This document shows positions 10,101 through 44,175 of a DNA stretch of 64,000 nucleotides, piece after piece. The notes beneath the pieces were generated by a model, which was not told the origin of the DNA, searched no databases, and saw nothing but the letters and a program-made list of their open reading frames with translations. The DNA is from Nitrospira japonica (GTDB lineage: Bacteria; Nitrospirota; Thermodesulfovibrionia; UBA6902). The stretch's first letter is position 1, and every line of letters starts with the position of its first letter. The position numbers and the translations under genes are program-made. The stretch lies in assembly GCA_020723105.1 (NCBI GenBank), contig DYJL01000008.1, positions 10,564 to 74,563 of the forward strand, written 5' to 3'.

Positions 10101-10812
10101 TCAGGTGGTGGGACTATTCATGATGTCTGATGCCTCATATCGTCTTGCGGACAAGTTGGGTAATGAGTTTTGGTTTGACCGGGCAGGTTATCTTACCGAC
10201 ATGATCTTTTCTGAGGACCATCATATTCATGTTGAATATGCTGACAGTTTTACTGACGCTTTTGAAGAAATCCCTTATCAGATCCAGCCTGCAGGTAAAG
10301 AGCAAACGGCATTTCTTAATGTCTTCATACCAAGAAAAATGACTGTTAAGAACCTCATCAGTGGAGATAGCGAGATCCTGACCTTCAGTGAAGAAGGCGA
10401 ATTTGCTGGATATGTTCCTGAAAATGCGGAAAAGAGCAGCTATAAAATATTAGCGCTAATGTCAGATGCATCTTTCCATCTGCTTGATAAGAATGGGAAT
10501 GAGACGTCATTCAGTTCCTTGCGGACTTTTGATGGAAAATTTAAAGAGATGGCTTTTTCTTCTGATCGCAGAATGGTGAGATCCGTGTCACAGGGCAATC
10601 AAAAGATCGGTTTTAAATATTCTATAGACAGATCAGGAGAAGTTATGATAGCCAGCGCCAATCTCTCGGAAGGCGAAGAAACAAAACTGAGTTATATAGT
10701 GAAATATAAATATGATAAGGAAGGCAGGCTCTATAGTGTAACTGGGACGGGGAATACAATAGCTAAAACTCAACATCAAAATAATGAAATGCTGATGCAT
10801 GTGAAAAAATAG
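7105..10812 (+). CDS. Large secreted protein (1236 aa), unknown function, internal tandem repeats
   Basis: Signal peptide MKTAKSKTLLFTFISVLFLSCIAYA precedes DQF. An ~100-aa tandem repeat starts at PAGDAKRKFLNVLIPEKM... and repeats at PAGKEQTAFLNVFIPRKM.... A second repeated motif is SSRFWFKPSKEK / SSRFWFVPEDMK. I recognise no known catalytic motif. Confidence 0.7.
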   Translation: MKTAKSKTLLFTFISVLFLSCIAYADQFIAFSLNKAEMEMRESGRSHKNRLFELGGITRPVGIVYDANRSDLIVVGQINEKEQKISLDDFVVALRAISVYKESPLVSIDRSDETETTKRQRVRFEGGIENTKFGKDLLEADIILKKMGVGELRTDIWGVKSYVDMSAEYWNKTGIEDSVSSRFWFKPSKEKSFVGVRDGVVIVKKLVIDVKTEVMGAINSHRPVDDRAGSYDEIGDRFASAVAANIDDIDSYYSEVKRLDPLFRLVGLAEGIKREAFNFKPDINFWLNEYRVEHIETLKDYPLLVKEKRLEKNGENRQMTINGGIELRPLLVDLNAGVVTALRDIVIKSRPEGNPLIWKLPLEGWQLPEDSKIDITAFGKKLRDSTAGVNGMSLTKRISPVDSPGNQKINYKSSPLSDGGSNFNFTDRFSPQKYSPHVGGVMLQGVAKVSGGEQAKVDLTSGNFSLIVGGQNARLAPEAYRKFITALWSVYYSQKDPGISIDPIGCFYFDPYDPERDKKFAECLKRYEKKEEKHMVRYIGKVINTDLGRVMREADYVMKKWSVGTEKPGISGFKSPDEYRGWKTTDSEGSSRFWFVPEDMKFKRGGDMLLFEDGRMTVKTEYMFKNDEGAQADPYNEKFAGFFTEHYGEIANKYPVYQELFEYAKMVSLAKYLKEQGLPMFWFLMANKDLVITEDSPGTVEALAKGSDYYKNLYIMGGVDLGFDARREGNYVYDREAVRAINEAVSKLPLNAYSKTTLSAGDITPASSEPFSFNLGKDSFTVVPQHSLTSGKDRHGIRYQTDIALRGTGLQLTGRALETIKNKIIRWMMVQELNPILRTKDTTKLSEAEIEALNKRITEETEKAKTKAGKIIEKMESLKNIKYTDENKFVKALEETIGREKTDIFKRMVMEFAYYNTNLDLVRYFKPGQQDIGEFGKGWHLLIPYRLKPAGDAKRKFLNVLIPEKMAVENQLTGDQEVLTFSTDRYTVAGYVPAKLESSQVVGLFMMSDASYRLADKLGNEFWFDRAGYLTDMIFSEDHHIHVEYADSFTDAFEEIPYQIQPAGKEQTAFLNVFIPRKMTVKNLISGDSEILTFSEEGEFAGYVPENAEKSSYKILALMSDASFHLLDKNGNETSFSSLRTFDGKFKEMAFSSDRRMVRSVSQGNQKIGFKYSIDRSGEVMIASANLSEGEETKLSYIVKYKYDKEGRLYSVTGTGNTIAKTQHQNNEMLMHVKK

Positions 10813-15315: not shown

Positions 15316-16203
15316 CTACCCCCTTTTTCTTCTTATCCCCATAATTATTCCAGCCTCTATCCCCAGTGTGCCTATGAAAGCAAGCACCGGATAAAAATAT
15401 ATAGTCTCTTTCTCCTCTGTCTCAAGGGCAACATAGTACCATGTAGAGACAACCTTTCTACCGCCCCTGTCACCTTCAGAGCCATTCCATACTGCAAGAG
15501 AAAGTGGGGTGACGCTGCCTTCCCTGAAAACAACGTCGAATTTATCCTGAGATGTCAGGGGCCGCTTAAACACAACAAACCATTTCCCGGACTGCCATTT
15601 TCCGTTACCGCTGATGTTTTGGATATCAGCCTTTTCCAGATCAGTTGCGTTTCCAAAGCCCTGAGCGATTATATTTTCAACAGGTGAAATTCTCGCTCTT
15701 GATACAGGATTGCCGACCTCAAGGCCTCCGGCAAATTCATCTGATGTTGCATAGGTACTATGCATGTCATTTGCATTTTGCCATGAAGCTTTCCAGAACC
15801 AGATATTTACAGGATTGTCTTTGTCGCCCATTGCAAAATGCGGTTTGGATGCAGCAGCAGATGAGGGAAATTCCAATGCCACGGCATCAGAGAACTTATC
15901 TACATCTAATGACGAATCTTCTGAGGCATCACTCCACTCAAGCAGAAAGGCCATTTCTTTTGTGTTGTGCAGGGCCCGGACCTTTAAATTTTTTACAGAA
16001 GATTCATAGGTCCTCGGTTTTGCCATAACCTGTGGAGCGAGGGGAATTTCAATGGCAGATGCATTGTTCCAGGCGCTGTTATCAGCTTCAAGGGGCAGAT
16101 CACCCGATACCTTCTTTGCCATGACAACAAGACCCTGGGAATAGGCATCAAAAGACAGGAGGAAAAAACAGAGAAGAGCGAAAATAGTTATCATTGCGAG
16201 CAT
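15316..16203 (-). CDS. Gamma subunit of type II DMSO-reductase-family enzyme (EbdC/NxrC-like, haem b), membrane-anchored
   Basis: A start at MLAMITIFALLCFFLLSFDAYSQG gives a signal peptide. The longer ORF extending to 16431 consists of REP repeats. The EB_dh-like domain and a C-terminal TM helix (FYPVLAFIGTLGIEAGIIMGI) are present. It is adjacent to the beta subunit. Confidence 0.65.
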   Translation of the reverse strand: MLAMITIFALLCFFLLSFDAYSQGLVVMAKKVSGDLPLEADNSAWNNASAIEIPLAPQVMAKPRTYESSVKNLKVRALHNTKEMAFLLEWSDASEDSSLDVDKFSDAVALEFPSSAAASKPHFAMGDKDNPVNIWFWKASWQNANDMHSTYATSDEFAGGLEVGNPVSRARISPVENIIAQGFGNATDLEKADIQNISGNGKWQSGKWFVVFKRPLTSQDKFDVVFREGSVTPLSLAVWNGSEGDRGGRKVVSTWYYVALETEEKETIYFYPVLAFIGTLGIEAGIIMGIRRKRG

Positions 16204-16210
16204 AGTGTGC

Positions 16211-16301
16211 TGTCCGTAACAGTTCTTTACACTGTCATTGCGAGGGACGAAGTCCCGAAGCAATCTCACTACGAGATTCCTCGCTTCGCTCGGAATGACA
16301 A
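16211..16301. repeat. REP/MITE-like palindromic element, family A (inverted pair of GTCATTGCGAG...GAAGCAATCTC units)
   Basis: The sequence is CTGTCCGTAACAGTTCTTTACAC-TGTCATTGCGAGGGACGAAGTCCCGAAGCAATCTC-ACTAC-GAGATTCCTCGCTTCGCTCGGAATGACA. It lies in the beta-gamma intergenic spacer. Confidence 0.65.
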
Positions 16302-16345
16302 AGCTGTAAAGATATTTAGCTGACAGGACAATAGGAAAGCAATCT

Positions 16346-16396
16346 TTCTTTTGACTACGAGATTGCTTCACACCCTTTGGGTGTTCGCAATGACAT
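16346..16396. repeat. REP family A single unit (reverse orientation)
   Basis: GAGATTGCTTCACACCCTTTGGGTGTTCGCAATGACA has an internal palindrome CACCC(T/A)AAGGGTG. Confidence 0.55.
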
Positions 16397-16440
16397 CTGA
16401 ACTTGTCTTCATAAATTTGAAATTTTCTCATTATCCCCTC

Positions 16441-17637
16441 CTATGTTATGTTATGCCTGTAGACTTGCAGTTTTTCATCATGGAAGGGCCTGATAAAGAC
16501 AGGCTCTTTTAAGGGCACCTTTACCAACTCTTTACCCTTTTCACCATAACCAGTAACAATGCCCTTTGATACCCTGAATTTTGCGGACCAGAACTCTGTT
16601 GAACCAAATAGCGTCAGAGCCCCCAGCAGGGTTTCATCTTTATGGGCATTTTTGTATGCCGCGACCGCATTCGCAGCATCCGGCCCGAACATCTGTATCA
16701 GATAAGGAAGTGGAACATGTATAGGCGGAATATAATATATATTAGGCTCCAGGCCAAGCTGCGGGTAGAGGGGTAACGCAATCTTCTTGATGTGAACCAG
16801 ATAGTCCACAGGATTTGCAGGGTCCGGCTTATCAGGGGTATGCAGCCAGCCATTAAGTCGTATCCTTCCGATGCAGGTTGTCACACACTGAGTCTGGTGT
16901 CCCTGTTCTGCAAGCGGATAGCAACCAATACATTTTTCAGCTATCTTTGTCGTGTTATTGAAAAGAACTTTTTTATAGGGACAGGCCCTTACGCATTCTC
17001 TGTAGCCTCTGCACCTTTTCTGATCCACAAGGACTATGCCGTCTTCCTCTCTCTTATAGATAGCCTTTCTCGGACAGGCTCCCACACAGGCTGGATATGT
17101 GCAATGGTTGCAAATGCGGGCGAGATAGAAATGCCATACCTTATGAGGCATTGTTATAAAATCACCCTTATCTATTGAGCCAGATGGTTCGTCTTCACCG
17201 ATGTTTGGATGGGCCCAGTCAATTTCCTCAGGGATATAGCCCTGAGCCACCTGCCCCTTTGGTGCAGCCTCAAATATTGTATTGCCTTTATAAACTTTCC
17301 CTTCCCATTTTTGAGGGCCCAGTAAATCCAGTATCTTCACGTCCCACGCCAGCGGATAAAACCCATACGGCTTTGACTCAACATTGTTCCAGAACATATA
17401 CTCCTGCCCCTTGCCCGTGGTCCATGTGTGTTTGCATGCCATGGTGCAGGTCTGGCAGGCAATGCACTTGTTGATGTCGAATACCGCGGCAAACTGTTTC
17501 TGCGGCCTTACTTCTTCGTATGGATAATACATCTCCCTCTGAATCTGCCAGTTCTTTACTTTATTTTTAGCCATTAATCCCTTACCTCCGTAGATTGCTT
17601 CGTCATCCCGAAGAATCGGAATTCCTCGCAATGACAA
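16441..17637 (-). CDS. Beta (Fe-S) subunit of Nar/Nxr-type oxidoreductase (NarH/NxrB-like)
   Basis: CIACQTCTMACKHTWTTGKGQEYMFWNNVESKPYGFYP matches the NarH N-terminus. Further ferredoxin motifs are CNHCTYPACVGACP and CRGYRECVRACP, plus CIGC...C. Confidence 0.9.
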   Translation of the reverse strand: MSLRGIPILRDDEAIYGGKGLMAKNKVKNWQIQREMYYPYEEVRPQKQFAAVFDINKCIACQTCTMACKHTWTTGKGQEYMFWNNVESKPYGFYPLAWDVKILDLLGPQKWEGKVYKGNTIFEAAPKGQVAQGYIPEEIDWAHPNIGEDEPSGSIDKGDFITMPHKVWHFYLARICNHCTYPACVGACPRKAIYKREEDGIVLVDQKRCRGYRECVRACPYKKVLFNNTTKIAEKCIGCYPLAEQGHQTQCVTTCIGRIRLNGWLHTPDKPDPANPVDYLVHIKKIALPLYPQLGLEPNIYYIPPIHVPLPYLIQMFGPDAANAVAAYKNAHKDETLLGALTLFGSTEFWSAKFRVSKGIVTGYGEKGKELVKVPLKEPVFIRPFHDEKLQVYRHNIT

Positions 17638-17671
17638 TCATGTTATATGTCATTGCGAGCGAAGCAATCTC
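17591..17671. repeat. REP family A inverted pair in alpha-beta intergenic spacer
   Basis: The sequence is GTAGATTGCTTCGTCATCCCGAAGAATCGGAATTCCTCGCAATGACA-ATCATGTTATATG-TCATTGCGAGCGAAGCAATCTC. Confidence 0.6.
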
Positions 17672-17688
17672 AATTTGAAATTTTAAAT

Positions 17689-20600
17689 TTAAATTACGTA
17701 TCCTCCAATCAGATACTTCTTCATTGCCTCATTTTCATAAGTCGGGCGGTAACCAAGTGAAGCAGGCCTCCAGAGGCCTTTACCCCCGATTCCTCCTTCT
17801 TCTGCCTTTGTGATTTTTACAAAGGCCTCTCTTGGAGCCCCTACAGGACAGTGAATGTCAGGGGCGAAGCCTTTGCCGATCAGTTGCCCAAAGGTCTCTT
17901 TTCTTATCATTGTATCTGTCATTAATGTAGGACCCAGCCAGGCGCGGGTGCAGCTCTGATGACCGCCGTAGCGGAACATGGCCTGATAGTTTGTTTCCCT
18001 GTTTTTTGCAAGTCCGTCAGGATTGCTTTCATGCGCCTTTACTGTGCCGTGGCTGGCCTGATATAAATTGAACCACATAAGCAACACGCCCCGCGGTATG
18101 CCTGCATAATACCTGGCCCGGCACATCATACGGCTTACTTTATAATCTTCATCACCCTTCTTCCATCCTCTGTACGGCCTGTCTTCGGGATCCGCATCTA
18201 TCCAGATATAGTCTCCGTCGTTTATATTCAAATCTCTTGCATCTTTTGGGTTGATATTTACATACGCCTCGCCAACCCAGGGCATTCTCTTGTCGTGCCT
18301 CTTCAGATCCCCGAACGGTCCAAAATATACAGATATGACGTCAATATCAATGGGCGTTGTATGAGCGCCGTGCCTGTATTTTGGGGTGATGAACTGAAAG
18401 GTCATGCCGTCTTTTACCCTGGGATGTCTGGTCTTCTTAAGTTCAGCCCATGTTTTTACAATATTTCTTACCTGCCGAACTTCAACAGAGAGGTCGTCTC
18501 TCTTAAGTCCGTATGTTTCAGGAGATGAGGGCTTAAGATAATCCAGTTGTTTACTCACAATTACATTCGGCTCATAGAAGGTTGCATCAATAGGCTCTCG
18601 ATAAACAGGCAGGTTCTCGCCATGCTCAATGAACTCAGGCTCTTCCCTGTAAAACTCAAGCCTTCCTGTCTTTGTATACCATGGTTTGCTTTCCTGATGC
18701 TGTTCCCACCCTGGAACCTTTGGATAGGTCCTGAAAAGCACAAGCGCAGGTATGCCTTCCTTTGCTTTGTTCTCAAGTTCCTCTATCTTATATCCCCTGA
18801 GAGAGGTGCTTGCATTGATTATTCTCTGTAAGTAAACCTCTACTTTTTTCTCGTAAACGAATTTCCAGTAATCCTCAAATCTCTTTTCTCCTGTAAGCGC
18901 TGCAAGCTGTTTTGCAACGCCCGCCATTGTTTCTATGTCCGCAACGGTATCATGTATTCTTTTAAGCGGGGTCCTTGGATATACGAGCGCAAAGGGATTG
19001 GTAACAGATGCCGTCAAATCCGGATATTTAAATTCGGCCCATGAGTCCACCCCGAACACTATATCAGCATACTCACAGGAAAGCGTCCACCACCATTCAT
19101 TAACTATTACAGTCTCCATTTTCGGGAGCGTATTGTGCATTACATCATAAAACCATTTGGCATTTCCAATCAGGGAATTACTGTTGACGACCCAGAGCAG
19201 TTTCGTAGGTGTTGGTGTATGTGTCCTGCCTGTAAATAATTTATTTCCTACTCTTAAGGGCCTGTCGCCGTAGTTGTAGTAATGGGCTGATTCAAATTTA
19301 AAATACCCCTTTGGCTTTATGGGCTTTGCAGGGTCCATTTCCGGATTAAACGGGTCCTCCATAAGATACTGGGGTGCGCCATTAAATATCGCTATCCTGT
19401 AATTGCCCGCATAACTGCCGGGGCTGCCTCCAAGATTTCCGATATTTCGCGTCATGGCAGATATGAGGTATAAACCTCTGTCTTTCAGAGCGGCGTTAAA
19501 GAACTGGTTGGGCCCCATGCCAACAGCAAAGAGCGTATTACCCTTGTTTTTCGCAATCTGTCTTGCAAGGCTGACAATGGCTTCTTTGGGAGCGCCTGTC
19601 AACTCTGCAGTATTGTCAGGCGTAAACTCCTCCAGATATTCTTTAACAACATCAAAAACCGGTCTCACTTCTATCTCTTTACCGTCAATGGTGCGGACCA
19701 TAAACCTTCCTTCGAGGGCGATGTCTTTCTTCAAATCGCTGAAGTGCTTGCCGACCTGGTCCCTTGAAATAACTGTCGGGGCCTTCTCGTTTTTATCCCA
19801 CATGACAAAATCGCCCCAGTCATTTCTCAATGCTTCGGGCAGATATTGTTCCTTGTGCTGAGGCATTGGCGGAGGGGTCTCTCCCTGCTGCAATACCTTC
19901 ACATAATTGCTCAACTGCACAGGCTTATAGTCAGGTATAATATCGGATGCCTTGAGATATTGAAGGTTGTCAGTTCTCAGGAGCACAGGCAAGTCAGTAA
20001 AGGCTTTCAGATAATCCGGATCATAAAGATTTTCCTTTATGAGAATATGCGCAATGCCCAGAGCCAGCGCCTGATCTGTGCCGGGCCTTATGATGATTAC
20101 TTCGTCAGCTTTGTTAGCAGTGGATTGATATTCAATAGTTATGTCTATAACCTTTATCCCTCTTAGCCGGGCCTCTGTAAGCCAGTGGCTGTCGGGCATC
20201 TTTGTGCTTATCCAGTTCATACCCCAGATGGTAATAAGGTTTGCATTCTCAGTGGCATGAAGCTCAAAGTCTATGGTCTGCTGTCCCGTGACCATCGGAT
20301 GTCCTGGCGGCAAGTCAGTATGCCAGCTATAGTTATCCCAGTACCTGCCGCCAACGGCCTTGTCAGGACCGGCTTTTCTTATATTTTCATCGAGAAGGGC
20401 AAGCATATTTGAGAAACGGCCCATGCCCGCAACCCTTGTTATTCCGAGAAAATGCATGCCTCCCCTGTGTTTGAGAGTCAGGGTGCCGACTCCTTTCATC
20501 CAGTCAATCATTGATTGATCGTAACCCTGAGCCTTAAGATATGCAGCTCCCTTTTCACCGGTATAAGTCCGTGCAATATTTATATACGCCTTTGCTGCAA

Positions 20601-21132
20601 GTCCGTATGCCTCTTCGTATGGCAGTTTAAGCCACTTGTCTTTTCCTCTCTGGAAAAATTTCACATGCGGTTTCCCTGTCTCAGGGTCCCTCGGGAAGCC
20701 CTCCTTAGCCCAGTCGTAAAAACCCTTTCTCACCATGGCGCCCTTGACCCTTCTGTCTCCATAAAATTTCCTTGCAAGTGCCAGTCCCTTCTGGCAGCAC
20801 CTCGGCTCCCATCTGTGAGTCGGCATATTTCCGTAAGGATCTACAGTTTTTCCATATCCATAAGTAGGCATGATTCTCATAATGACGCCATTCTTTACAT
20901 AAGCCCGTAAAAGACAATTATGTGTGTCATTCGGGGCGCAGGTAAAGACAAAGGTATCATCATATTTGAATTTATCCCGGTATAGTTTTTCCCACTCCCG
21001 ATCCGGATATTCTCCCATCGGATTGTCAATACTCACGGGCTGAAGGAATGCAAGCCTTGGAGAGTTTACTGCCAAACCTGCTGCGCCTGCCAGAGACCAT
21101 TTTAAAAAATCCCTCCTGCTGAAGCTTTTCAT
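17689..21132 (-). CDS. Molybdopterin alpha subunit, type II DMSO reductase family (NarG/NxrA-like), TAT-exported
   Basis: 1147 aa. Twin-arginine signal [17 protein letters not shown] is present. An N-terminal Cys/His cluster ([11 protein letters not shown]...CC) fits an FS0-type site. Size and architecture match NarG/NxrA/EbdA-type enzymes. It is followed by the NarH-like beta subunit. Confidence 0.85.
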
Positions 21133-21833
21133 GCGTTAGCCTCCCCTAAACAAAATTGATTTTCTTCTTCTACTTCTTCGATCTTGAAACCAGCCACTTT
21201 TTGCGGCGAAACAGACAGGTATTTACATTCAGCATCAAGCCACTCAATCAGAAACAGGGCGATAGTATGATAAAAGGAGCTTCCATGAAAACTCAGCGCC
21301 TCTGCAAATACGTTTACCCATCTGCCGAGATGGTCCTCTAAAAATTTCTTTTCCGCAGAGATGCAAAGCGCTGCATTTTCATTTTCACTTTTCAGCAGCG
21401 CCTCAGCCTCTTTCATTGTCACGAGATGCATAAACTCAAGTTCTGTTGCAATCTGGTCCGGCCTGTCTTTTATAAAATCCATTCCCCACGCCCTGTAGAA
21501 TCCGGCGATATCAGCCATTTCACCAGTTGAAAATACAGAGGCTGCAGCCCTGTAGTATTCAGTCTCATAAGGAGGACAATTGCTTTTAAGTGTTAAAAAT
21601 CTCACATGCTCATCCACGGCCTGATCTACATTGAAAGCCTGCAGCTTCCTCAGATTTACGACAGGCCCTGCGAGTTCCGTTTCAAGAGGGTATCGTTTCA
21701 GCGCACTCTCTATTTCATTAAAAAATGTCTTGCTCTTCAGGAAATCTGCAAGTTCTTCATCAGGATAAAAAAAACAGTAACTGAGGAGCCGGTACATCTT
21801 TGATCTGTTAAAAGCTGTTTCAGCGTTATTCAT
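21129..21833 (-). CDS. TorD/NarJ/DmsD-family redox enzyme maturation chaperone
   Basis: A 234-aa acidic helical protein lies immediately upstream of the alpha subunit and overlaps it by 4 nt. YETEYYRAA / GFYRAWG-type motifs fit the TorD-like family. Confidence 0.6.
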
Positions 21834-27092: not shown

Positions 27093-27148
27093 AACCTCGT
27101 TATACATGTTGCTTGTAATCCATAAAATTACTCTGTTCCAATATTTAC

Positions 27149-27310
27149 AGACATGGAAGGCTGTCTCAGAATTTCTATACGACACCTTTGAAAAGGGATT
27201 AGGGGATAGGGAGTAGGGGGTAGAAGAAAAGAAATAAGAAAAACAGCTTGAGGCAAAAATGTAATATGCCTTTTGTCGTTTATAGAAATTCTGAGACAGT
27301 CTTCCATGTC
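27149..27310. repeat. Family B palindromic element (162 bp) with 35-bp inverted arms and G-rich core
   Basis: The arms are GACATGGAAGGCTGTCTCAGAATTTCTATACGACA ... TGTCGTTTATAGAAATTCTGAGACAGTCTTCCATGTC. The core contains AGGGATTAGGGGATAGGGAGTAGGGGGTAG. Confidence 0.65.
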
Positions 27311-27447
27311 AGAAAAAGATCTTAAATATCTTTTAAGATGTTTGATTAATAACATAAATATTACCCCTGAGAAAGTATGGCTCAGAAGCAATGAATTTAT
27401 AATTGCCTGAGCTTTTGATGAAATGATAATTTAAAAAAGAGTGGAAG

Positions 27448-28723: not shown

Positions 28724-29962
28724 TTGGAAAAAATATTATCAAGAAACATAAACGTACCTGATTCTCAATCTCTTGACGTATACATAAAACGCGGCGGATA
28801 CGACGCCCTGAAAAAAGCCCTCTCACTTCCCTCTGAAAAAGTTATTTCAATTGTTGCAGAGTCCGGACTGAGGGGCCGGGGCGGAGCGGGTTTTCCAGCA
28901 GGCATGAAATGGAAATTGCTGCCTGCAGACAGAACCGCTGCAAGATATCTCATATGCAATGCAGATGAGGGAGAGCCCGGCACTTTTAAGGACCGGCAGA
29001 TAATAGAATTGGATCCGCATCTCCTGATCGAAGGGATGACCATTGCCGCATATGCAATTGGAGCCTGCAGGGGGTTTATCTATATCAGGGGAGAATATGA
29101 CTGGATAGCCAGGGTTCTCGTCAGGGCGCTTAGAGAGGCTGAGGATAAGGGTTTCAGTGGTGTTGATATATTAAATTCAGGCCATCAGTTTTGCATAGAT
29201 GTGTTCAGAGGAGCCGGATCTTATATATGCGGAGAAGAAACAGCCCTTATTGAATCCCTCGAAGGCAAGGCCGGGAGACCGAGATTAAAACCGCCGTTTC
29301 CGGCTGCCTTTGGACTTTATGGCCAGCCGACTGTAGTGCAGAACGTTGCAACTCTTGCATCTATCCCGTTTATCATTAACATGGGACCGGATGTCTTCAA
29401 GTCTTTCGGAAAGCCCCGAAGCTACGGAACAATGCTGTTTGGCATTTGCGGGCACGTAAATAAATCCGGCGTGTATGAATATCCGATGGGTACGTCTCTC
29501 AAAAAATTAATATATGAGGTTGCGGGCGGAATCAAAGATAACAAAAAATTAAAGGCCGTTATTCCCGGAGGACTTTCAGCCCCGATACTGAAGGCAGATG
29601 AGATAGACATCGAAATGGATTTTGATTCTCTTATTGCCGCAGGTTCTATACTCGGGACCGGCGGTATTATTGTATTGGATGAGGACGTTTCCATACCCTT
29701 TGTGGCACAGAAGGCAGCCAGGTTTTTTGCCCATGAATCCTGCGGGCAGTGCACCCCCTGCCGGGAGGGGACCAGCATGCTTAAACTTCTGATAGACCGG
29801 ATAGCTGCAGCTGAGGGAAGTTTGGCAGACATTGAACAGGTACTGAGATTGTGCCGCTATATCAAAGGTTCAACCCTGTGCGCCATGGGCGACGCCGCAG
29901 CCTTCTCAGTCGGGACGATGGTGAAGAAATTCAGGGAGGAGTTTGAGGCGTTGGTGAAATGA
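28724..29962 (+). CDS. NuoF/FdsB/HoxF-like NAD(H)-binding FMN/4Fe-4S subunit
   Basis: TTG start. GRGGAGFPAGMKW matches the FMN/NADH site. C-terminal ESCGQCTPCREG is the 4Fe-4S motif. Confidence 0.85.
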   Translation: MEKILSRNINVPDSQSLDVYIKRGGYDALKKALSLPSEKVISIVAESGLRGRGGAGFPAGMKWKLLPADRTAARYLICNADEGEPGTFKDRQIIELDPHLLIEGMTIAAYAIGACRGFIYIRGEYDWIARVLVRALREAEDKGFSGVDILNSGHQFCIDVFRGAGSYICGEETALIESLEGKAGRPRLKPPFPAAFGLYGQPTVVQNVATLASIPFIINMGPDVFKSFGKPRSYGTMLFGICGHVNKSGVYEYPMGTSLKKLIYEVAGGIKDNKKLKAVIPGGLSAPILKADEIDIEMDFDSLIAAGSILGTGGIIVLDEDVSIPFVAQKAARFFAHESCGQCTPCREGTSMLKLLIDRIAAAEGSLADIEQVLRLCRYIKGSTLCAMGDAAAFSVGTMVKKFREEFEALVK

Positions 29963-29994
29963 AACATAACCAATAATAATATTTGACAGGAGAT

Positions 29995-30133
29995 CGAAAA
30001 ATAGAGATAGAGGGTTGTCATTGCGAGCAAAGCGAAGCAATCTCGTCTTTTTCAATGAGATTGCCACGAACCCTTCGGGTTCTCGCAATGACAGGTAGAA
30101 TATAGTGTTTCTCATTCTATCTCTATTTTTCGG
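29995..30133. mobile_element. MITE-like element: 17-bp terminal inverted repeats flanking a REP-family-A hairpin pair
   Basis: Left TIR is CGAAAAATAGAGATAGA (29995-30011). Right TIR CCGAAAAATAGAGATAGAA is the reverse complement at 30116-30134. The interior is GTCATTGCGAGCAAAGCGAAGCAATCTC...GAGATTGCC...CTCGCAATGAC. It produces the spurious ORF 29906-30115 (RLLRFARNDN). Confidence 0.6.
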
Positions 30134-32927: not shown

Positions 32928-32955
32928 GCGTGGATGGTCATTCCCACGAAAGTGG

Positions 32956-33046
32956 GAATCCGGAAGAAAATGGATTCTCGCCACGGCGAGTCGCTGTGGT
33001 GACCGCATCAGGTGCGGAATGACAGAGAATGGAATCATTAGAAGGA
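32956..33046. repeat. Diverged member of REP-family-A palindrome
   Basis: GTCATTCCCACGAAAGTGGGAATCC ... GGATTCTCGCC...GCGGAATGACAG is an inverted pair with an internal palindrome. Confidence 0.45.
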
Positions 33047-34573: not shown

Positions 34574-34611
34574 AAGTTCTCCACGTTAAATTTATTTAAG
34601 ATATGTTATCC

Positions 34612-34772
34612 GACATGGCAGCCTGTTTCAGAATTTCTATAATCGACAAACGGCATATTACATTTTTGCTTCAAGCTGTTTTTCTTATTTCTTCTTGACT
34701 ACCCCCTACTCTCTATCCCCTAATCCCTCTTCAAAGGTGTCGTATAGGAATTCTTCTACAGCCTCCCATATC
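34612..34772. repeat. Family B palindromic element, second copy (core inverted, about 90% identical)
   Basis: The sequence CGACATGGCAGCCTGTTTCAGAATTTCTATAATCGACAAACGGCATATTACATTTTTGCTTCAAGCTG...CCCCTAATCCCTCTTCAAAGGTGTCGTATAGGAATTC is the reverse complement of the 27149-27310 core. Confidence 0.65.
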
Positions 34773-34879
34773 TGCTAACTATTAGAACAGAGTTCGCTAT
34801 GAATAGTCGTGACTAAGAATATTAGTGATGAGTATAATCTTTTGTCAATAAGCAGTATTCTATTTGTTATAATCTCTCT

Positions 34880-42799: not shown

Positions 42800-42963
42800 A
42801 GTATCTCCTTTTTAAGTGGTTTTTACTGATTTGTTGATAACATGTTACCTGATAACTTTGAAGAGAAAATGAATAAAATATGAAGATTATGTGAAGATTG
42901 TGAGTCCATGATATTTTTTTGCCCGGATGAAATGATATACTATTGTCCTGTCAGCTAAATATC

Positions 42964-43064
42964 TTTACAGCTTTGTCATTCCGAGCGAAGCGAGGAATCT
43001 CGTAGTGAGATTGCTTTGGGATTTCGTCCCTTGCAATGACAGTGTAAAGAACTGTTACGGACAG
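42964..43064. repeat. REP-family-A palindromic element (mirror copy of 16211-16301)
   Basis: The sequence is CTTTACAGCTTTGTCATTCCGAGCGAAGCGAGGAATCTC-GTAGT-GAGATTGC...CTTGCAATGACAGTGTAAAGAACTGTTACGGACAG. The terminal 21 nt is the reverse complement of 16211-16231. Confidence 0.6.
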
Positions 43065-43104
43065 CACACTAGCCAAAAATAATTTTAGAAGGAGTTATGA
43101 ATAG

Positions 43105-43686
43105 ATGAAAATAACCAGAACTGCTGCCGGCATGGTTGTTATTTTATTTTCCCTCGGCATATTTCTGTCCGGATGCACAAAGGATAAAAGCAATCATGAG
43201 CTTACTGAAAAAACCCCAATTGCTGAATTAATGGCAGCAATGAATATCAAGCATATTACACAACCAACAGGCGCCCCTGATTTTGAGCTGTTTTCTGTAA
43301 AAGGCCAAAAGGTAAGTCTCAGTCAATATCGCGGCAAGGTTGTTTTACTGAGTTTTTGGTCTACATGGTGACCCTGGTGCAGGAAGGAGTTGCCTTCCCT
43401 GGAAAAGCTTAATCAGATTTTCAAAAACGATAAATTTGTACTTTTAGGTATTGATATAGGAGAAAACAGAGACACCGTCTTAAGCCAGGTTCAGCAATAC
43501 GGGCTTACTTTTGATAATTTACTGGATGAAACAGGTGAAGTTAGCGCTGGTTATGCAGTCCGTTCCACCCCGGTGAAATTTATTATTGATGCTAAAGGAA
43601 ATCTGATTGGGTTTTCACTTGGCTATAATGAATGGGATAGTAACGAGATGCAGTCCTTAATCCGGCGGTTAATGGAGGCAGGCTAA
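43105..43686 (+). CDS. TlpA/ResA-like thiol:disulfide oxidoreductase lipoprotein, selenocysteine in active site (UxxC)
   Basis: Lipoprotein signal ...FLSGC is present. The thioredoxin-fold context VVLLSFWSTW-TGA-PWCRKELPSLEKL puts the TGA at 43369-43371 exactly at the first Cys of the WCxxC motif. ORF 43390-43686 is in the same frame and continues the Trx fold. A SECIS-like hairpin lies 9 nt downstream. Confidence 0.7.
43380..43401 (+). other. SECIS-like hairpin downstream of UGA in tlpA-like gene
   Basis: CAGGAAGG-AGUUG-CCUUCCCUG forms an 8-9 bp stem with a one-nt bulge and a 5-nt loop containing GU. Confidence 0.45.
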
Positions 43687-44015: not shown

Positions 44016-44058
44016 TTCTCAGCCTTCATGCTATTAATCATCAAACATCTATTTAAAA

Positions 44059-44081
44059 TCTTTCAGTTGACATGGCAGCCT
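44059..44081. repeat. Family B minimal/solo-TIR remnant
   Basis: GACATGGCAGCCTGTTCCATGTC consists of the left-arm start and right-arm end only. Its downstream flank (AAACAAAGTTCGCCATGAAT) resembles the flank of the 34612-34772 copy (AACAGAGTTCGCTATGAAT). Confidence 0.4.
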
Positions 44082-44175
44082 GTTCCATGTCAGCAAACAT
44101 TTAAACAAAGTTCGCCATGAATTTATTATACGATAACAAAACAACTTGAAGAAAATATGAATTCATCTACGACAA

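Follow-up and report, generated by a model that had tools for sequence, protein, structure and literature searches.

The palindromic repeats scattered through a 64,000-nt stretch of Nitrospira japonica DNA (GTDB lineage Nitrospirota; Thermodesulfovibrionia; UBA6902; positions 10,564 to 74,563 of contig DYJL01000008.1, assembly GCA_020723105.1; hereafter the window) are best explained, with a probability that we put at roughly 0.7, as single-stranded DNA (ssDNA) hairpins of the superfamily of CGTC-tagged repetitive extragenic palindromes (REPs) and NTS/Ssn-related motifs (SRM). Within this superfamily they would form a structurally distinct subfamily, which spreads selfishly and has a cognate Ssn nuclease. 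A first-pass annotation of the window had described a repeat family at six loci; this description is right in outline, but it merges the hairpins with an IS630-type miniature inverted-repeat transposable element (MITE) and misreads an insertion that lies within a gene.

Listing every GTCATT/AATGAC site, we count 12 hairpin half-units at six loci in the window, and all six loci reported before do hold copies, with the refined coordinates given in table 1. Each half-unit consists, in this order, of an unpaired (C/T)GTC tag, ATTGC, GAG, a variable mini-hairpin, GAA, GCAAT, and a C(T/C)N tail: the ATTGC/GCAAT stem of 5 bp forms the foot, GAG and GAA form a conserved 3x3 internal loop, and above this stands an apical stem that varies between 2 and 10 bp and carries a 3-nt loop. 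We refer to the canonical form as the ATTGCGAG-type unit. The long hairpins are composed of two half-units in inverted orientation, either head-to-head (HH) or tail-to-tail (TT). The tag reads TGTC in 10 of the 12 half-units and TATC and GGTC in one each; at the 3' end, the window units carry CTC, CTA, or CTT, and the public copies CCAG or CTC. The tag-end box T1 (GTCATTGCGAG, with up to one mismatch) was observed 10 times against 0.8 expected and the inner box I1 (GAAGCAATCTC) 9 times against 1.8 expected, and none of 100 shuffles matched the count of either box. Folded as DNA, all loci score much better than dinucleotide shuffles (z between -3.7 and -9.7), and every locus also beats its shuffles when folded as RNA (z between -3.3 and -8.3), in agreement with the long imperfect hairpins described earlier.

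The similarity is not confined to these few loci, which bears out the proposal of a dispersed family. Using the 20 fixed flanking bases as a query (pattern GTCATTGCGAG-N4-30-GAAGCAATC), we obtained 351 public copies, and all counts given for them are among the matches listed. The pattern is found in at least 120 viral contigs of IMG/VR and at least 120 stretches of GTDB species genomes, and extends over more than 10 phyla. The hosts include Alphaproteobacteria (Bradyrhizobium, Sphingomonas, Novosphingobium, Rickettsiales, and Rhodospirillales), Gamma- and Deltaproteobacteria; Pedobacter, Mucilaginibacter, Flavobacterium, and Prevotellaceae for the Bacteroidota; Chloroflexus, Anaerolineales, Nostoc, and Microcoleus for the Chloroflexota and Cyanobacteria; and also Patescibacteria, Zixibacteria, Planctomycetota, Sporomusa (Bacillota), Helicobacter rodentium (Campylobacterota), Melainabacteria, Latescibacterota, and Ignavibacteria. 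The GC content of the host loci ranges from 30% to 72%.

The public copies vary in a manner that preserves their structure. There are 177 distinct middle segments among the 351 copies. Pairing is nevertheless kept: with the last G of GAG as the closing base, a perfect stem of 3 bp or more is present in 65% of the longer middles but in 2.6% of shuffled ones, and 38 different stem arms reach 4 bp or more. A G-N-A triloop is present on the tag strand of 154 of the 284 hairpin-forming middles. G-N-A triloops of the d(GCGAAGC) type make unusually stable DNA mini-hairpins, and the preference for them therefore indicates a strand-specific structure of single-stranded DNA. A pyrimidine precedes GTC in 335 of the 351 copies, and C or T follows GCAATC in 337. 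An inverted HH partner accompanies 195 copies and a TT partner 23; units occur in a short (S) and a long (L) form, and the HH dimers in which both halves are exact comprise 35 of L+S, 13 of S+S, and 1 of L+L composition.

With respect to neighboring genes, single units point in either direction about equally often (39 codirectional, 35 convergent), and the occupancy of convergent, divergent, and tandem intergenic regions (16%, 11%, and 11%, respectively) reveals no preference. No protein family is enriched beside the hairpins of 120 genome loci, where 140 open reading frames (ORFs) match 173 Pfam families with a maximum of two per family; this fits a single-copy partner gene, which would be invisible in random loci. 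Given the lack of orientation and intergenic bias and the ordinary housekeeping neighbors, selfish elements at the level of DNA are therefore favored over promoters, terminators, and signals in the sense-strand RNA.

Three viral contigs (L003, L015, and L036; L numbers designate public contigs and loci) encode proteins that look like phage structural proteins, as judged by translation only, and carry co-oriented single units between most of their genes; in all three, units lie directly upstream of ribosome-binding sites. The half-units of L003, L015, L021, L037, L051, and L068 are co-oriented within each contig (7 of 7 in L015), being sense or antisense depending on the contig. Tandem head-to-tail arrays, rare elsewhere, were seen in the viral contigs L046 (2695-2818, four copies with a 33-nt period), L020 (28-101), and L021 (5117-5172). 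A comparison of the window dimer with the phage GenBank collection gave no match, and a literature search by the repeat sequences and their tell-tale peptides returned primer coincidences only.

In other genomes, the hairpins are linked to genes for small GIY-YIG proteins. L187 contains a 96-aa GIY-YIG ORF (Pfam GIY-YIG, E = 6e-18) separated by 11 nt from the unit in front of it and by 4 nt from the inverted partner behind it, and the encoded protein is 44% identical (E = 9e-17) to the SsnA region of N. gonorrhoeae. Homologs with about 70% identity were found in four further contexts, all of them flanked by ATTGCGAG-type units or close variants. Altogether, the GIY-YIG gene is bracketed by hairpins in 17 of the 19 loci sampled: in all six metagenomic or genomic contexts (L187, L260/L268, L270/L272, and L282, with variant units in L280 and L283), and, in an independent sample of plasmid and chromid loci, in 11 of 13, on both sides and by the CGTC-type hairpin of the respective host. 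The flanking hairpins are of the CGTC-3 type in Rhizobium, Sinorhizobium, Shinella, and Neorhizobium, of the CGTC-1/NTS type in Azospirillum, Neisseria, and Aeromonas, and of other types in the Sphingomonads, Spirosoma, and Planktothrix. The Ssn proteins cluster by hairpin type: members of the ATTGCGAG group show 61-87% identity among themselves and 33-52% to proteins whose genes are flanked by hairpins of other types. No relatives of the GIY-YIG protein were found in viral contigs. As for the wider surroundings, some Ssn-like genes with their hairpins lie amid restriction-modification or defense genes (N6_N4_Mtase and ResIII in L280; HsdR and N6_Mtase in L283; MmeI and DISARM drmA in L284), and the Ssn-like gene of Azospirillum (L287) lies between sufB and sufC.

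An association of hairpins with GIY-YIG genes is already published: the Ssn proteins are small GIY-YIG nucleases (cd10448), and their genes are arranged as NTS-ssnA-NTS (Chenal et al. 2025, Nat Commun 16:2388; PMC11893778). SsnA cuts ssDNA next to the NTS hairpin CGTCATTCCCGCGMAVGCGGGAATCYRG, leaving double-stranded DNA, RNA, and the reverse strand uncut; what matters for cleavage are the 3 nt ahead of the palindrome, and for binding, above all, the C that immediately follows it (PMC11893778). The tag and 3' C positions on which SsnA depends are the positions conserved in this family, and the hairpins of the window are therefore best explained as being of the Ssn type.

Under the explanation that we prefer, the forward strand would fold whenever the DNA becomes single-stranded, as in replication, transformation, conjugation, or phage DNA, and a cognate Ssn-family GIY-YIG nuclease of about 95 aa would bind the folded hairpin and nick it immediately 5' of the tag; in other genomes, the putative gene for this nuclease sits between two such hairpins. 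The hairpins would be non-autonomous selfish DNA that reaches new sites in either orientation, forms inverted dimers, and rides in other mobile elements. Within the window, they have inserted into the alpha-beta spacer of a molybdoenzyme operon, in frame into the signal peptide of its gamma subunit, and into three other intergenic sites, and an IS630-type MITE with one dimer then transposed into a TA within the loop of another hairpin. This subfamily is probably cut by its own Ssn clade; copying of the hairpins to new sites may be carried out by Ssn or by a host process; and we would expect the genome of the window to encode such an Ssn.

Several points weigh against this explanation. The 64-kb window contains no ssn gene, nor a gene for a REP-associated tyrosine transposase (RAYT) or an IS630 transposase, so that a cognate nuclease of this genome is putative. 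Strand-specific cleavage of ssDNA by Ssn has been demonstrated for the NTS type only (PMC11893778), and the role demonstrated in Neisseria is the modulation of transformation. The published SRM query, HGTCWYN(0-2)YYVSBRHN(0-5)WNVSBRGN(0-2)RNCYNB, gives 0 matches on either strand of the window; four window units and the canonical ATTGCGAG unit fail it, whereas the NTS of Neisseria, taken as a control, is recognized. Among the 13 plasmid GIY-YIG loci, two are not bracketed on both sides (L296 has no hairpin, L293 a downstream one only). It should also be noted that the copy counts from the public scans (at least 120 each) are lower bounds and do not represent proportions among taxa.

The hairpin and its own Ssn clade, about 70% identical across Planctomycetota, Deltaproteobacteria, and Chloroflexota, could be taken further, as a distinct module that crosses phyla, is carried by phages, has been missed by SRM searches, and is actively copied into single-stranded loops via an Ssn-dependent ssDNA pathway; Ssn would then be the "transposase" of the CGTC REPs and not only a regulator of transformation. 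We put this forward tentatively and consider it rather unlikely. If it were true, the bipartite design, in which foot, tag, and internal loop serve recognition while the apical hairpin is free to vary, and the recurrent nesting would imply loop-directed copying. The nested arrangements, with dimers that sit at the apex of MITEs or other palindromes and a MITE that sits in a hairpin loop, are natural experiments on how hairpins spread.

A different enzyme is suggested by the classical REPs. These are the GTAG-tagged REPs of Enterobacteria and Pseudomonas, with their REPINs (REP doublets forming hairpins) and bacterial interspersed mosaic elements (BIMEs), and RAYT is a Y1 (HUH) transposase of the IS200/IS605 type. 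Mobilization in trans by a RAYT would be compatible with the organization of the window repeats, which share the tagged hairpins, HH and TT dimers, long/short heterodimers, and intergenic dispersal, and a strand-specific hairpin of the ssDNA type with G-N-A loops would suit an HUH enzyme. However, the tag is (C/T)GTC and not GTAG, and the genes bracketed by the hairpins are GIY-YIG genes. When two RAYT sequences served as tblastn queries, neither the window nor any of 240 loci with hairpins gave a match, none of seven dimer-carrying plasmids is among 21 RAYT-like matches in PLSDB, and the three RAYT-like genes that we inspected are flanked by other repeats. In the study that defined the CGTC families, CGTC units were not observed to flank any tyrosine transposase (Di Nocera, De Gregorio, Rocco 2013, BMC Genomics 14:522; PMC3733652). 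We thus regard mobilization by a RAYT as very improbable, and an Ssn-type nuclease as the better candidate.

The copies at 16211 and 42964 are of a composite nature. A metagenome scan with 22 nt of their outer flank returned eight loci, one of which (L243) holds a complete insertion sequence (IS) of 1139 bp (116-1254) with the ends TAGTGTCATGTCCGTTAAATAGCTTTACA and, reverse-complemented, TAGTGTCCTGTCCGTAACAGTTCTTTACA. Its 359-aa ORF scores with helix-turn-helix and DDE_3 domains, which identifies the IS630 family, and the C-terminus of the transposase is encoded by the right terminal inverted repeat (TIR). The window elements 16205-16331 and 42943-43069 have the right-end sequence of this IS on one side and a left-end type on the other; both are flanked by TA, within ATAG and CTAG, respectively, and the IS of L243 itself lies in CTAG. 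Their interior is the hairpin dimer only, without an ORF in the 127 nt. Because their TIRs match the ends of the L243 IS and TA flanks them, the two elements are IS630-derived MITEs, having the TIRs of an autonomous IS, a TA duplication, and no coding capacity, and the hairpin dimer is their cargo. The 42964 copy had been called an exact mirror of the 16211 copy, including a 21-nt outer flank, and the unit had been taken to be longer than the core. The two are indeed mirrored, but with 96% complementarity over 139 nt (16203-16341 versus 42933-43071) they are not identical; the flank in common measures about 30 nt per side; and the longer unit, real at these two loci, is the TA-flanked MITE and not an extended REP.

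When 16189-16202, TA, and 16334-16346 are rejoined, that is, after removal of MITE copy 1 and one TA, the result is a normal half-unit, ATCATTGCGAGCATAGGAAAGCAATCTT. Both the unit 30016-30044 and GTCATTGCGAGCATAGCGAAGCAATCTC in L002 are colinear with it; the TA target lay in the loop of this half-unit. MITE copy 1 is a clean nested insertion and provides direct evidence of MITE mobility. Sibling MITEs from groundwater metagenomes (L242, L244, L246, L248, and L249) have identical TIRs and, as their sole interior, different dimers of the CGTC/SRM type. Since the TIRs stay the same while the enclosed hairpin subfamily changes, the hairpin is cargo rather than the substrate of the transposase.

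One might then suppose that all copies are MITEs moved by a DDE transposase of the IS630/Tc1-mariner type, the core being merely the MITE interior. Two of the six loci are bona fide examples, with TA duplications and the TIRs of a full IS, and outer complementary flanks of at least 10 nt were observed around 5.7% of public HH dimers against 0.25% of re-paired controls, another TIR, GGTAGTGCCTCAGTTTGAAAT, being common to a dimer in both L164 and L222. On the other side, the remaining four loci have no such TIRs, identical TIRs enclose different subfamilies, about 94% of public dimers lack outer inverted flanks of at least 10 nt, and the core occurs in phyla where the IS was not seen. This makes a general MITE origin highly unlikely. 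A second, unrelated repeat family is present in the window at 27144-27316 and 34606-34774 (about 170 nt, inverted, 88% identical, with a partial copy near 44047-44087); its members carry 36-nt TIRs, TTTACAGACATGGAAGGCTGTCTCAGAATTTCTATA, and it is probably another MITE.

The molybdoenzyme operon allows a comparison with orthologs. Homologs of its beta subunit are at best 85% identical, with no 100% entry; the named ones come from Thermodesulfovibrionales (79%) and Candidatus Magnetoovum (74%), and going by these homologs the organism would probably belong to the Nitrospirota. The gamma ORF carries an insert of 207 nt (16189-16395, 69 codons) in the n-region of the signal peptide: in the alignment with four orthologs (A2), MRKFQIYEDKFR is followed by the 69-aa insert and then by ITIFALLCFFLLSFDAYSQG, which contains the conserved h-region and cleavage site. 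The insert comprises 78 nt of dimer and 129 nt (43 codons) of MITE with TA. As both lengths are multiples of three and stop codons are missing through the insert in the frame of gamma only, these copies are an in-frame intragenic insertion. They had been assigned to a beta-gamma spacer, and the protein sequence derived from them to a false N-terminal extension of 15316-16431; both assignments have to be revised, since the copies lie inside the ancestral gamma ORF, and the start codon and ribosome-binding site are conserved with relatives. The intergenic location holds for the alpha-beta copy. In five orthologous operons, the beta-gamma gap measures 8-9 nt and gamma starts with MRKIQDS...; the corresponding ATG of the window (16431) follows the beta stop at a distance of 9 nt, is preceded by GGAGGGG, and encodes MRKFQIYEDKFR. 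To judge from the conserved ribosome-binding site and the preserved frame, translation probably still starts at 16431. The gamma of L250 has about 22 extra residues in the same region of the signal peptide. The N-terminus of gamma is coded by tandem repeats of about 7 nt (window 16400-16431; orthologs L251, L253, L255, 3644-3700), ATTCAAG occurring four times in L253 and AAATTTC in L251 and the window, with the resulting peptides KIQDSRFKIQD and KFQISNLKFQI; an AAATTT-rich run also precedes the hairpin in the alpha-beta spacer of the window.

Presence/absence polymorphism is evident from the same operons: the insertions of the window are missing from the relatives, or other repeats occupy the same sites. 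The alpha-beta spacer measures about 10 nt and has no repeat in L255, whereas it contains a TT dimer in the window, and in other orthologs it holds one of three unrelated palindromic repeats (CCCTCTCCCGCAAGGGGAGAGGG...GGGAGGGTGAG in L250; TCTCCGCGAACTCTGCATTCTCTGCGGTGAAGG in L251; GGCTATAGGCTGAAGC...GCCTTAAGCC in L253/L254). The repeats of this spacer are independent insertions into a permissive site, and the hairpin is plainly not needed for the function of the operon.

This bears directly on the possibility that the hairpins are functional RNA elements, be it mRNA stabilizers in operon spacers, as the first-pass annotation had considered, processing sites, or modulators of translation. The TT dimer 17591-17671, in which the order of the boxes is permuted (I1rc-T1rc, loop, T1-I1) in a BIME-like manner, folds stably (DNA z = -9.2 and -9.7; RNA -45 kcal/mol, z = -6.7), ends 1 nt before the Shine-Dalgarno sequence of beta, and is not followed by a U-tract, so read-through is expected; several phage contigs likewise have single units just upstream of ribosome-binding sites. 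However, one orthologous operon does without any hairpin and others have unrelated repeats, single units are biased neither in orientation nor in the type of intergenic region, and the units of phage contigs are sense in some and antisense in others. A strand-specific preference for G-N-A triloops is typical of DNA mini-hairpins, which also counts against a role as RNA. Rfam gave 0 matches at gathering score in the window or in 17 hairpin-rich loci, and an E-value scan (E up to 10) of 16150-17720 gave chance-level matches only. A scan of 16100-17800 revealed neither an excess of terminators or promoters nor, within the repeats, any such site on the coding (-) strand; a single weak promoter-like match (9/12), on the + strand, overlaps unit B at 16390-16417. 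SsnA is, moreover, inactive on RNA (PMC11893778). A primary role as RNA thus appears improbable, and a stabilizing function in particular is not borne out, although a secondary, exapted effect on mRNA decay may exist at single loci.

The two remaining loci are intergenic. The dimer 29995-30132 sits between a NuoF-like gene and a 62-aa ORF, and its RNA fold reaches -61.6 kcal/mol (z = -8.3). The copy reported at 32956 had been counted with the others; it belongs to a sister subfamily, ATTCCCAC-GAAA-GTGGGAAT, which is of the CGTC-1/NTS type, and is flanked by trpC-like (IGPS) and amino-acid-kinase genes. The Logan contig L121 (SRR13164373, 1659 nt), the sole public contig found to encode the exact amino-acid-kinase protein of the window, breaks off 73 nt upstream of that gene, within the repeat 32936-33024. 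The repeats also create small spurious ORFs, such as 29906-30115 (-) and 42951-43076 (-), and the tell-tale peptides LLRFARNDN and VIPSEARNLVVRLLRDFVPRNDS pointed out before are present.

Table 1. Coordinates of the repeats and of the operon genes in the window (positions count from the first nucleotide of the 64,000-nt stretch).
Feature	Position	Strand	Description
NarJ-like chaperone	21129-21833	-	operon
TAT-signal molybdopterin alpha subunit	17689-21132	-	operon; TAT, twin-arginine translocation
Fer4_11 beta subunit	16441-17574	-	operon
EB_dh (heme-b family) gamma subunit	15316-16431	-	Pfam EB_dh E = 1e-34
HH dimer B	16189-16202 + 16334-16395		two pieces, MITE between
B-left half-unit, left piece	16189-16202	+	TATCATTGCGAGCA; split from remainder of unit by MITE
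HH dimer B, remainder	16334-16395		I1 end of split unit 16336-16346; 75% identical to 30035-30093
Complete half-unit of dimer B	16359-16395	-	TGTC-ATTGC-GA-ACACCCAAAGGGTGT-GAA-GCAAT-CTC
MITE copy 1, IS630-family	16203-16333		TA 16203-04, 127-nt element 16205-16331, TA 16332-33; target ATAG, loop of unit B
Half-unit, MITE copy 1 cargo	16233-16267	+	TGTC-ATTGC-GAG-[GGAC GAA GTCC]C-GAA-GCAAT-CTC
Partner half-unit, HH dimer 16233-16300	16273-16300	-	TGTC-ATTCC-GAG-CGAAGC-GA-GGAAT-CTC
L-type half-unit, alpha-beta spacer	17591-17636	-	TGTC-ATTGC-GAG-GA[ATTCCGATTCTTCGGGAT]GAC-GAA-GCAAT-CTA; 1 nt from beta gene GGAGG
Minimal half-unit, TT partner of 17591-17636	17648-17671	+	TGTC-ATTGC-GAG-C-GAA-GCAAT-CTC
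HH dimer in palindrome	29995-30132		half-units 30016-30044 (+), 30057-30093 (-); 17-nt perfect arms CGAAAAATAGAGATAGA at 29995-30011, 30116-30132
Sister-subfamily dimer	32936-33024		32936-32962 (+) GGTC-ATTCCCAC-GAAA-GTGGGAAT-CCG; degenerate partner 33003-33024 (-)
MITE copy 2, IS630-family	42941-43071		TA, 127-nt element 42943-43069, TA; target CTAG
HH dimer, MITE copy 2 cargo	42974-43041		half-units 42974-43001 (+), 43007-43041 (-)

Apart from the repeats, the window contains a thioredoxin/TlpA-like lipoprotein ORF (43105-43686, +) with an in-frame TGA at 43369-43371, reading FWSTW-TGA-PWC where WCxxC is usual; this reading makes a selenocysteine (UxxC) protein the probable product. A hairpin, CAGGAAGG-AGUUG-CCUUCCCUG, starts about 11 nt downstream of the TGA and is a candidate selenocysteine insertion sequence (SECIS), the segment folding no better than its shuffles (z = 0.18).

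For the annotation of such genomes, recognizing the hairpins removes spurious ORFs and accounts for assembly breaks, as with the contig that ends in a repeat, and it corrects the gene model of gamma, which keeps its ancestral start and has a 69-codon repeat insert in the signal peptide. It also extends the superfamily of CGTC REPs and Ssn motifs to a Nitrospirota-like genome, to phage contigs, and to a hairpin that is invisible to the published query. The matching Ssn clade would have a testable specificity, and site-specific ssDNA nucleases that recognize new targets are of practical interest as tools.

Among the systems known, those built on MITEs and transposases share single traits with the repeats of the window. 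MITEs of the IS630/Tc1-mariner type with TA duplication, for example the Correia elements of Neisseria, resemble the 127-nt elements in their TIRs, in the TA duplication, here at NTAG, and in having ends identical to those of a full IS630-family element. They differ in that the only interior of the window elements is a CGTC/SRM hairpin dimer, the subfamily of which varies among siblings. With REP/REPIN-RAYT systems, the hairpins have in common that tagged ssDNA hairpins form unequal inverted doublets and that a single-copy nuclease or transposase gene is flanked by repeats; the tag is another one, the enzyme is of the GIY-YIG and not the HUH Y1 type, and no RAYT association was found. The palindromic elements of Rickettsia (RPEs) also insert in frame and free of stop codons into functional genes, as the 69 codons in the gamma signal peptide do, although that insert is a composite of a dimer and a nested MITE and lies in the n-region of a signal peptide rather than in a mature domain.

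The closest relatives are the CGTC-tagged REPs. According to their description, four families (CGTC-1 to CGTC-4) from five phyla have a CGTC or TGTC tag (CCTC being allowed), a stem of 8-9 bp starting with AT, a loop of 4-5 nt, and a short 3' tail with the consensus CCA; they form mostly HH dimers, with heterodimers common, some copies lie in frame within genes, and the families are described as having "no dedicated transposase" (Di Nocera, De Gregorio, Rocco 2013; PMC3733652). According to the same study, RPE-4 and RPE-6 are of the CGTC type, and CGTC-1 corresponds to the dRS3 of Neisseria and to RPE-6 of Rickettsia (PMC3733652). The window repeats agree with these REPs in the tag, the tail, and the HH dimers. 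The stem departs from them: although it starts and ends with ATT/AAT, only 5 bp are continuous, and the unit at 32936 (8 bp and GAAA) is the only one that fits. The sequence of the subfamily does not occur in the text or supplements of that description, figures aside (PMC3733652), and, unlike the described families, the subfamily extends over more than 10 phyla and viral contigs.

The NTS/SRM-SsnA system is matched in the unpaired xGTC tag that precedes the stem on its 5' side, in the C that directly follows the stem, in the bracketed GIY-YIG gene of about 95 aa, in the hundreds of copies per genome, and in the covariation of protein clades with hairpin type. The architecture of the hairpin sets the two apart: the NTS has a continuous stem of about 8 bp and a 4-nt loop, whereas the stem of the window subfamily is interrupted, with a 5-bp foot, a GAG/GAA loop, and an apical hairpin of 2-10 bp.

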